The notes under the pieces were generated by a model, which saw only the letters and a list, made by a program, of their open reading frames with translations, was not told where the DNA came from and did not search any database. 33,949 nt of DNA from Octopus sinensis (taxonomy: Eukaryota). Positions 18,509-19,467 of the stretch are shown here, piece after piece (the stretch's first letter is position 1; each line of letters opens with the position of its first letter). The stretch is taken from NCBI RefSeq assembly GCF_006345805.1, contig NW_021831932.1, forward strand, positions 1 through 33,949, given 5' to 3'. The position numbers and the translations under genes were made by a program.

Positions 18509-18707
18509 GGTACCTGATTTATTGACCCCGAAAGGATGAAAGGTGAAGTTGACTTCAGTGGAATTTGAACTCAGAATGTAAAGACAGACAAAATACAGCT
18601 AAGCATTTCACCTGGCATGTTAACGATCCTGCCAGCTCACCACCTTAATAATAATAATAATCATTATTTACATTTGACGGATATTTGTCTTCATCTTGTT
18701 TGTTGTT

Positions 18708-18753
18708 AACACAACATTTCGGCTGATATACCCTCCAGCCTTCATCAGGTGTC
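18708..18753 (-). ncRNA. Minimal type I hammerhead ribozyme
   Basis: GACAC-CTGATGA-A-GGCTG-loop-CAGCC-GAAA-TG-TT-GTGTT. Confidence 0.8.
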
Positions 18754-19196
18754 TTGGGAAAATTTCGAACCTGGGTTCTCATTCCTAAGGTATTTTTCGA
18801 TGTTGTTGTTGTTATTATTATCCAGGTCACTGCCTGGAATCGAACTCGGAGCACAGGCATATGGCATAGTGGTTAAGAGCACTGGCTGCTAACCCCAAGA
18901 TTCCGAGTTCGATTCCAGGCAGTGACTTGGATAATAATAATAATAACAACAACAACAACAATAATAATAACAATAATAATAATAAAAATAACAACAATAA
19001 CAATAACAATAATAATAAAAATAACAACAATAATAAAAATAACAATAACAACAACAATAATAATAACAAAAACAATAATAATAATAATAATAGTAATAAT
19101 AACAACAACAATAATAATAGTAATAATAATAACAACAATAATAATGATATTGAAAAATACCATAGGAATGAGAACCCAGGTTTGAAATTTCCCCAA

Positions 19197-19242
19197 GACA
19201 CCTGATGAAGGCTGGAGGGTATATCAGCTGAAATGTTGTGTT
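19197..19242 (+). ncRNA. Minimal type I hammerhead ribozyme
   Basis: GACAC-CTGATGA-A-GGCTG-loop-CAGCT-GAAA-TG-TT-GTGTT. Confidence 0.75.
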
Positions 19243-19467
19243 AACAACAAACAAGATGAAGACAAATATCCGTCAAATGTAAATAACGTAAATAAACACT
19301 TCATTTGATGTTGGTCCAGTCCACTTAGCCGTAAATAGATATTCCAAGGACAGCCCCCGTGTCTCACTCGGAGAATCCCAGAAAGCTTGGGAAAGGTTTT
19401 CGTCCTGTTTTTTGCTTATTGTTATTCTCCAACCCATAGATCTTTTCCGGTTCAGCTTTTTTTCATC

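Follow-up and report, generated by a model that had tools for sequence, protein, structure and literature searches.

A pair of short inverted repeats in a contig of Octopus sinensis (NW_021831932.1, assembly GCF_006345805.1; the whole stretch analysed, 33,949 nucleotides, is called the window here) raises the question of whether a tRNA-like promoter that leads into a hammerhead ribozyme marks a non-autonomous SINE or retrozyme parasitising a Penelope-like element (PLE), as the sequence-only reading of this DNA had proposed, or whether it belongs to such an element itself. The A/B-box head, the (AAT)n linker, the hammerhead and the inverted partner described in that reading are all present where it placed them, and its span of 18664..19286 located the structure essentially, although it falls slightly short of the arm ends, which lie at 19295 (plus arm) and at about 18662 (minus arm). 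The sense arm (18852..19295, plus strand) is a pLTR that runs from -3, counted from the first base of the tRNA-like head (+1, position 18855), to tail position 149. It is composed, on the same strand, of the tRNA-like head (18855..18930), with its boxes retained and its stems partly broken, an (AAT/AAC)n linker (18931..19149) that is far longer in the window than in most copies seen, and the start of a PLE open reading frame (ORF; 19168..19295), with the first in-frame ATG at 19168 and, in the window copy, a stop at 19183-19185. Within this ORF start lies a minimal type I hammerhead (19197..19242, plus strand), with a predicted cut after 19237. The inverted arm (18662..18850, minus strand) is a 5'-truncated pLTR, extending from about +48 of the tRNA-like head, via a short linker, to tail position 142; it contains the 3' part of the head with the B box (18822..18850, minus strand, 97% over 29 nt) and the same minimal type I hammerhead motif (18708..18753, minus strand), with a predicted cut after 18713. 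The two arms are 92% complementary over 158 nt. We interpret the window structure as a single Penelope/Poseidon-type insertion, made of two head-to-head 5'-truncated pLTRs, in which a tRNA-derived A/B-box promoter likely starts Pol III transcripts at tRNA +1, and we hold this reading, taken as a whole, with moderate confidence.

The head, judged from its sequence, is tRNA-like and not a tRNA. Neither ARAGORN nor Rfam at gathering score gave any match in the window, and ARAGORN gave none at 8 family loci. A profile built from 10 host tRNAs, in turn, ranks this head first within the window (E 6.8e-5). The Pol III A box (18862..18872, plus strand) is an exact match to the consensus quoted in PMC8969392 and the B box (18906..18916, plus strand) differs from the consensus quoted there by one mismatch, with a spacing of 33 nt from A box to B box. 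A single donor tRNA was considered and rejected: 9 host tRNAs fit at only 40-47 of 73 positions and none was singled out. The closest of 32 other A+B-box heads in the examined loci belongs to an interspersed tRNA-like repeat family (48 of 73 positions identical). Across 84 loci of 23 related families, all from other hosts, no pLTR was found to have an A+B box; one A+B-box match and one profile match both fall elsewhere in the flanks. These families are host DNA in metagenomes and show 32-50% protein identity, lower than the 54-68% of the closest homologues (P0004-P0007). At element positions -24 to +18 (e.g. L059 and L130) the native upstream sequence imperfectly mirrors the first 18 nt of the head, perhaps as a relic of an old inverted duplication. 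A weak tRNA-like match at window positions 32502-32553 (plus strand; host-tRNA profile, E 2e-4) is probably another SINE head.

The head-linker-hammerhead unit is the pLTR of a Penelope/Poseidon-type element of the Octopus sinensis genome. In five loci picked by the head, a GIY-YIG-like coding end lies directly upstream of it, with reverse transcriptase (RT) motifs upstream of that end, and in full-length copies both ends bear the tRNA head together with linker and ribozyme. An autonomous RT and GIY-YIG element sharing the tail, the search for which had been proposed, was thus found, and it includes head and linker as well as ribozyme. The linkage between head and tail holds genome-wide: among 30 loci picked by the GIY-YIG end the head comes next in 29 and a tail piece is present in 28, and 22 of 30 loci first picked by the tail have a nearby head match. 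When the 5' part of the ORF was used as query, the tail was seen to run directly into the ORF; the 20-mer across this junction has up to 103 exact matches genome-wide, and 35 of 40 junction loci fetched (the first listed of the 103, excluding those already examined) continue into the ORF. The unit runs from the ORF stop, across about 30 nt, to the tRNA-like head, and on through (AAT)n and the ATG to the hammerhead and the end point, past which the ORF continues in tandem copies. The unit is 2645 nt (2.65 kb) long and its majority line contains a single ORF of 835 codons, with the ATG 34 nt 5' of the ribozyme core. Since the ORF runs on from the tail, and since the ribozyme-coded residues also open an 847-aa homologue (55% identical), the supposed SINE tail corresponds to the first 51 codons of the ORF, and the earlier assignment of the tail to a Penelope-like element is borne out by its being the start of the RT ORF.

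RVT_1 (Pfam) matches were obtained in 2 of 5 ORF pieces and no endonuclease match was obtained with Pfam in the element ORF; the GIY-YIG call is a motif reading together with a weak alignment (E 3e-4) to a stretch of L268 for which Pfam gives GIY-YIG, though below its cut-off. A search of the PDB returned two weak RT matches only, and no relative was found in the viral contigs searched. The extra zinc-finger-like linker that marks Neptune and Nematis, according to the available part of PMC8557442, is absent in P0002 and P0006 and present in a second PLE family of the same genome (L267-L269). A single ORF with RT and C-terminal GIY-YIG, partial tandem pLTRs, a minimal hammerhead, an inverted 5'-truncated neighbour and no zinc-finger-like linker place the element in the Penelope/Poseidon type, a class assigned here by layout and motifs. 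The longest stop-free ORF stretch seen has 551 codons, and hence no copy is intact among those examined. The ORF pieces average 91% identity. A spliceosomal intron in the pLTR is a feature of some Penelope/Poseidon members; the internal deletions noted in the octopus element are variable. Many copies, L103, L115, L120, L129, L132 and L144 among them, have internal deletions that bring together distant pLTR parts, which suggests frequent template jumps.

In the genome, of 2.72 Gb, the exact hammerhead 21-mer occurs 5834 times and its reversed control not once, so that the motif is not there by chance; since 20 of 90 arms selected through other parts contain this 21-mer unchanged, the family amounts to roughly 26,000 arms. 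Sequencing runs marked as element-bearing come from five organisms, with no RNA run among those listed. Arms are about 5% diverged from the majority outside CpG. Neighbouring arms (335 arms at 235 loci were considered) are oriented head-to-head in 87 cases and tail-to-tail in 2, in agreement with the earlier proposal that an inverted truncated copy is a PLE signature. In 72 of the 87 pairs one long-ended arm (tail 165-175) is combined with a shorter one (mostly 141-151). Target duplications of at least 8 nt, most often 12-13 nt long and AT-rich, flank 33 of 85 pairs, compared with 1 in the control, and the arms of one pair share 18 non-CpG variants, compared with 7.4 when re-paired. Given the orientation bias, the long and short ends, the target duplications and the shared variants, each pair is a single insertion. 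The window pair is one of 8 short/short pairs: the usual family 3' end lies 26-33 nt beyond the point where either window arm stops, and a clear target duplication was looked for at this pair and none was seen.

The relative extent of the two arms bears on how the pairs arise. In 64 long/short pairs, the arm reaching further 5' is the short-tailed one in 37 and the long-tailed one in 20, with both equal in 7. The 37 pairs cannot be fold-back copies of one cDNA, because their short-tailed arm reaches further 5'; the 20 pairs in which the long-tailed arm does so are also explained by fold-back. In the available text of PMC11167929, the Poseidon protein of Anolis (PAc) cuts and extends both strands in vitro, and a one-sided tail of PLE insertions is described in that of PMC8557442. 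In the mechanism that we propose, the RT-endonuclease would nick AT-rich DNA and reverse transcription would start inside the RNA, at tail position 175 or at about 141-150, as with Anolis Poseidon in vitro; priming on both target strands would then generate head-to-head pairs, which fits the 37 pairs.

A sharp step in the 5' ends was observed at the border of the head. The exact 18-mer at +32..+49 is counted 5870 times and that at -31..-14 is counted 1042 times. Corrected by their exact-match rates (35 of 96 and 22 of 49, respectively, in small and partly selected samples), these counts correspond to about 16,000 and 2,300 arms, that is, to a loss of 86% within 63 nt. The loss expected over 63 nt from the decay elsewhere is 10-22%, where the 10% expectation comes from the region upstream of -31, for which 30 loci give a median 5' end near -420, and that of about 22% from the steeper loss between ribozyme and head. 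At loci picked by the tail, a 5' end from -12 to +8 was recorded for 42 of the 45 arms that retain the A box (+8..+45). Five of six ORF-continuing junction copies with a sense head match have no extension into the native upstream sequence, the sixth (L284) extends upstream beyond -134, and the remaining 29 end further downstream. The ORF-bearing copies L127, L133 and L224 start at -4 to +5, and the single-arm copies with target duplications L029, L034 and L058 at -6 to +2. Transcription start at +1 is the simplest reading of this pile-up. Two other clusters of 5' ends were discarded, the one at -551 as an artefact of the majority line and the one at -24, in ORF-picked loci, as most likely produced by ungapped walking. 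Three raw RNA-seq runs, chosen by their species label, contain 6,400-9,400 element reads each, with no strand bias and with 78-83% of them running into unlike sequence; no start pile-up is listed at +1, and these reads derive from genomic copies and cannot show the start site.

Copies that begin at +1 and end early in the ORF have features of SINEs, namely A/B boxes near the 5' end, a length of 80-500 nt and, in 3 of 6 single-arm examples shown, clear target duplications. An independent tRNA-headed SINE/retrozyme lineage parasitising the PLE would account for the excess of short over ORF-bearing copies (about 7 to 1), for the 8-12-nt target duplications that flank some single short units, and for the promoter kept in short copies, which could act as sources. 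We nevertheless regard such a lineage, which was the proposal of the sequence-only reading, as very improbable: the autonomous element itself carries the same head, linker and ribozyme, the six best-separating variants are all CpG decay that tracks selection for likeness to the window copy, and non-CpG divergence is similar in short and ORF-bearing arms (5.5% in 26 arms and 4.6% in 5 arms, respectively, in the unbiased set). No non-CpG variant diagnostic of short versus ORF-bearing copies was found, in a weak test whose short sample is small or biased toward the window copy; within the reach of this test, short copies appear to form no separate lineage, and nothing supports an independent family. 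Short copies would rather be SINE-like by-products of the element's own pLTR, because RNAs from +1 would carry the RT start region and reverse transcription would start internally; their source would be either a 3' pLTR or, in full-length RNA, the start region at the 5' end. Even with no start at +1, both the accumulation of 5' ends and the inverted pairs could arise if RT on long RNAs stalled or folded back at the palindromic hairpin of the tRNA border. This hairpin is the second most stable in the element (-13.4 kcal/mol in RNA), ends cluster at -7 (13 of 42) with many pairs joining at the +1 palindrome (junctions judged by eye), RNA-seq reads from genomic copies switch strand near +5 and -7, and the variants shared by the arms of a pair would also follow from fold-back. 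However, of 17 copies that reach a stronger hairpin near -2200, only about 4 end at it (by eye), single-arm copies flanked by target duplications show the same 5' border, and in the 37 pairs discussed above neither arm is contained in the other, so that stalling alone seems to us an improbable origin of the step.

The remaining alternative accepts the same PLE and a start near +1 and differs in the polymerase. Given a TATA-like motif at -34 of the element, Pol II could initiate near +1 too, the head being a passenger left by an old SINE-like insertion with an (AAT)n tail in the 5' UTR. Of 9 pLTR spacers examined in related elements, 5 also have a TATA-like motif (at -34 to -79 relative to the ribozyme), capped RNA is the simplest source for an ORF of 835 codons, and the nearest other head is, as mentioned, an interspersed tRNA-like repeat. 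Drosophila Penelope, moreover, uses a LINE-like internal promoter, according to the part of PMC2377424 available. Against a passenger head, the boxes agree with the consensus in a head whose tRNA stems are partly broken, and copies starting at +1 keep the boxes and lose the TATA-like motif. The unit also contains no sense run of at least four T (T4), where 3.0 are expected from its own codons (P 0.026), and 30 in antisense, whereas T runs are present in 5 of 9 related spacers. Among related ORFs, 19 of at least 300 codons contain 115 T4 runs, compared with 95 expected, with 4 shorter ones having none and with at least one run in all 12 of at least 550 codons; the second PLE family of the genome has 5 T4 runs per ORF, as expected. 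This scarcity is not specific to the element, as RLE-type (2 versus 8.6 expected) and RTE-type (1 versus 2.6 expected) sequences of the same genome, in small samples, also show it, and a second null model (P 0.004) was rejected because the element shares its TTC bias with the second PLE family. We therefore consider a Pol II start with a passenger head unlikely, if less so than stalling at the hairpin, and on balance favour Pol III initiation at tRNA +1, as suggested by the boxes and the 5' ends. RNAs beginning there would include, about 250 nt downstream, the region of protein binding and RT start. More tentatively, and with clearly lower confidence than the initiation itself, Pol III may make the full 2.65-kb terminator-free unit, including the mRNA, so that the tRNA-derived promoter would have replaced a Pol II one and, together with internal RT initiation, would have spawned the SINE-like swarm.

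The hammerhead at 19197-19242 has a full core with an extra A after A9, a stem I of 5 bp, a stem II of 6 bp and a stem III of 4 nt, and the inverted arm carries the same motif. In both window ribozymes the CpG of the stem III palindrome has been lost (self-duplex of +0.8 kcal/mol, compared with -3.5 kcal/mol for the family majority), and free folding of the two motifs did not yield the ribozyme fold (z -0.35 and -0.83); the window copies of the ribozyme are likely inactive. Covariation of the stems, a check that had been proposed at the outset, was judged across related families and not inside the family, where it was dropped because non-CpG divergence is only about 5%. Eight related loci have the same hammerhead core and a palindromic stem III, with paired stems that differ and yet stay paired around this core, and these hammerheads match the minimal PLE ribozymes presented in the available part of PMC4209133. 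No peak of 5' ends was found at the ribozyme cut site, partner arms included (judged by eye). The ribozyme would cleave only as a dimer or with the help of a protein, and most 5' ends would not be set by it. The free core position N7 is the commonest non-CpG variant site of the tail (42 of 335 arms); its A variant is present in 12 of 28 arms at the pLTR-ORF junction loci (L273-L312), hinting at a subfamily.

Several known systems share parts of this arrangement. The Poseidon element of Anolis carolinensis (PMC11167929) also has a single ORF with RT and C-terminal GIY-YIG, AT-rich targets, a hammerhead that extends over the ORF start, with a cut expected within the ORF, and copies that end at two points early in the ORF; in the octopus element the ATG precedes the ribozyme core by the 34 nt noted above and the end points fall at about ORF nt 120-129 and 154. 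No tRNA-like promoter is described in the portion of that source available, whereas the octopus element has one. The extra base after A9, the G10.1 closing pair and the palindromic stem III are those of PLE minimal hammerheads (PMC4209133), and the inverted 5'-truncated neighbour copy and the short tail at one end only are those of known PLE insertions (PMC8557442), but a tRNA-derived promoter in the pLTR is unmentioned in the accessible text of both. The Schistosoma Sm-alpha and Sj-alpha repeats (PMC6765202, PMC8490949) are short retroposons in which a Pol III promoter is likewise followed by a type I hammerhead. They differ in forming tandem repeats from which monomers are cut out by the ribozyme, and no autonomous PLE with the same unit is described in the available parts of those sources; the octopus copies, in contrast, are dispersed and head-to-head, with starts away from the cut site. 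In the TRIMp3 elements Cassandra, Helenus and Ajax, too, the terminal repeat contains a Pol III promoter derived from a small RNA; unlike the ORF-bearing PLE of octopus, these are short non-autonomous LTR elements, and their autonomous partners are expected to use Pol II (PMC10886601, from its available part). Non-LTR retrozymes are short hammerhead elements related to PLE pLTRs (10.64898/2026.07.22.740005), but they form tandem arrays and tRNA is not mentioned in the accessible portion of that work. Retrozymes are marked by head-to-tail arrays of ribozyme monomers and by circular RNA from self-cleavage; the window pair is head-to-head, one of many such pairs in the family. No report of a tRNA-like promoter in a pLTR was found in the literature searched, which includes few subscription papers, and none is described in the available text of PMC6962438 and PMC13282606. 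The family may sit in Repbase, Dfam or a deposited repeat library under a PLE or SINE label.

What is unusual here is the tRNA-like promoter within the pLTR of a Penelope/Poseidon-type element, the insertion form itself being ordinary for PLEs. With this promoter as the likely start of its RNAs, a single element would be able to produce full copies as well as short SINE-like ones by the thousand. The family numbers tens of thousands of arms, and these have a sharp landmark at the 5' side and two end points at the 3' side, so that counting can test both how PLEs are transcribed and why they form inverted pairs with a one-sided tail. A pLTR in which a Pol III promoter lies just upstream of an internal RT start would also provide a route to a SINE, by generating promoter-bearing short copies with no new partner, and, if it is true that Pol III also makes the mRNA, the element would count among the rare Pol III units that code for protein. 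In annotation, PLE ends of this kind are easily misfiled as a SINE family.

Some further elements were noticed in the loci examined. The second PLE family (L267-L269; G000 C4, C2 and C10), in which no A+B box was found at these loci, has a cysteine-rich, Neptune-like linker, open frames of 624-952 aa and copies 93-95% alike. In L006 (about 2049-2477, on the strand opposite to the tail), a 143-aa frame that resembles the GIY-YIG endonuclease of another PLE lineage lies beside a fragment of a restriction-like endonuclease retroelement. Poseidon-like ORFs, two of them with hammerheads, are present in L393-L396, in records labelled as bacterial MAGs that are likely eukaryotic host DNA. In the window itself, tandem 183-184-nt units (16946-18032, 19822-21281 and 21874-22420) are related to a dispersed SINE-like repeat, which also flanks the insertion (18022-18645).
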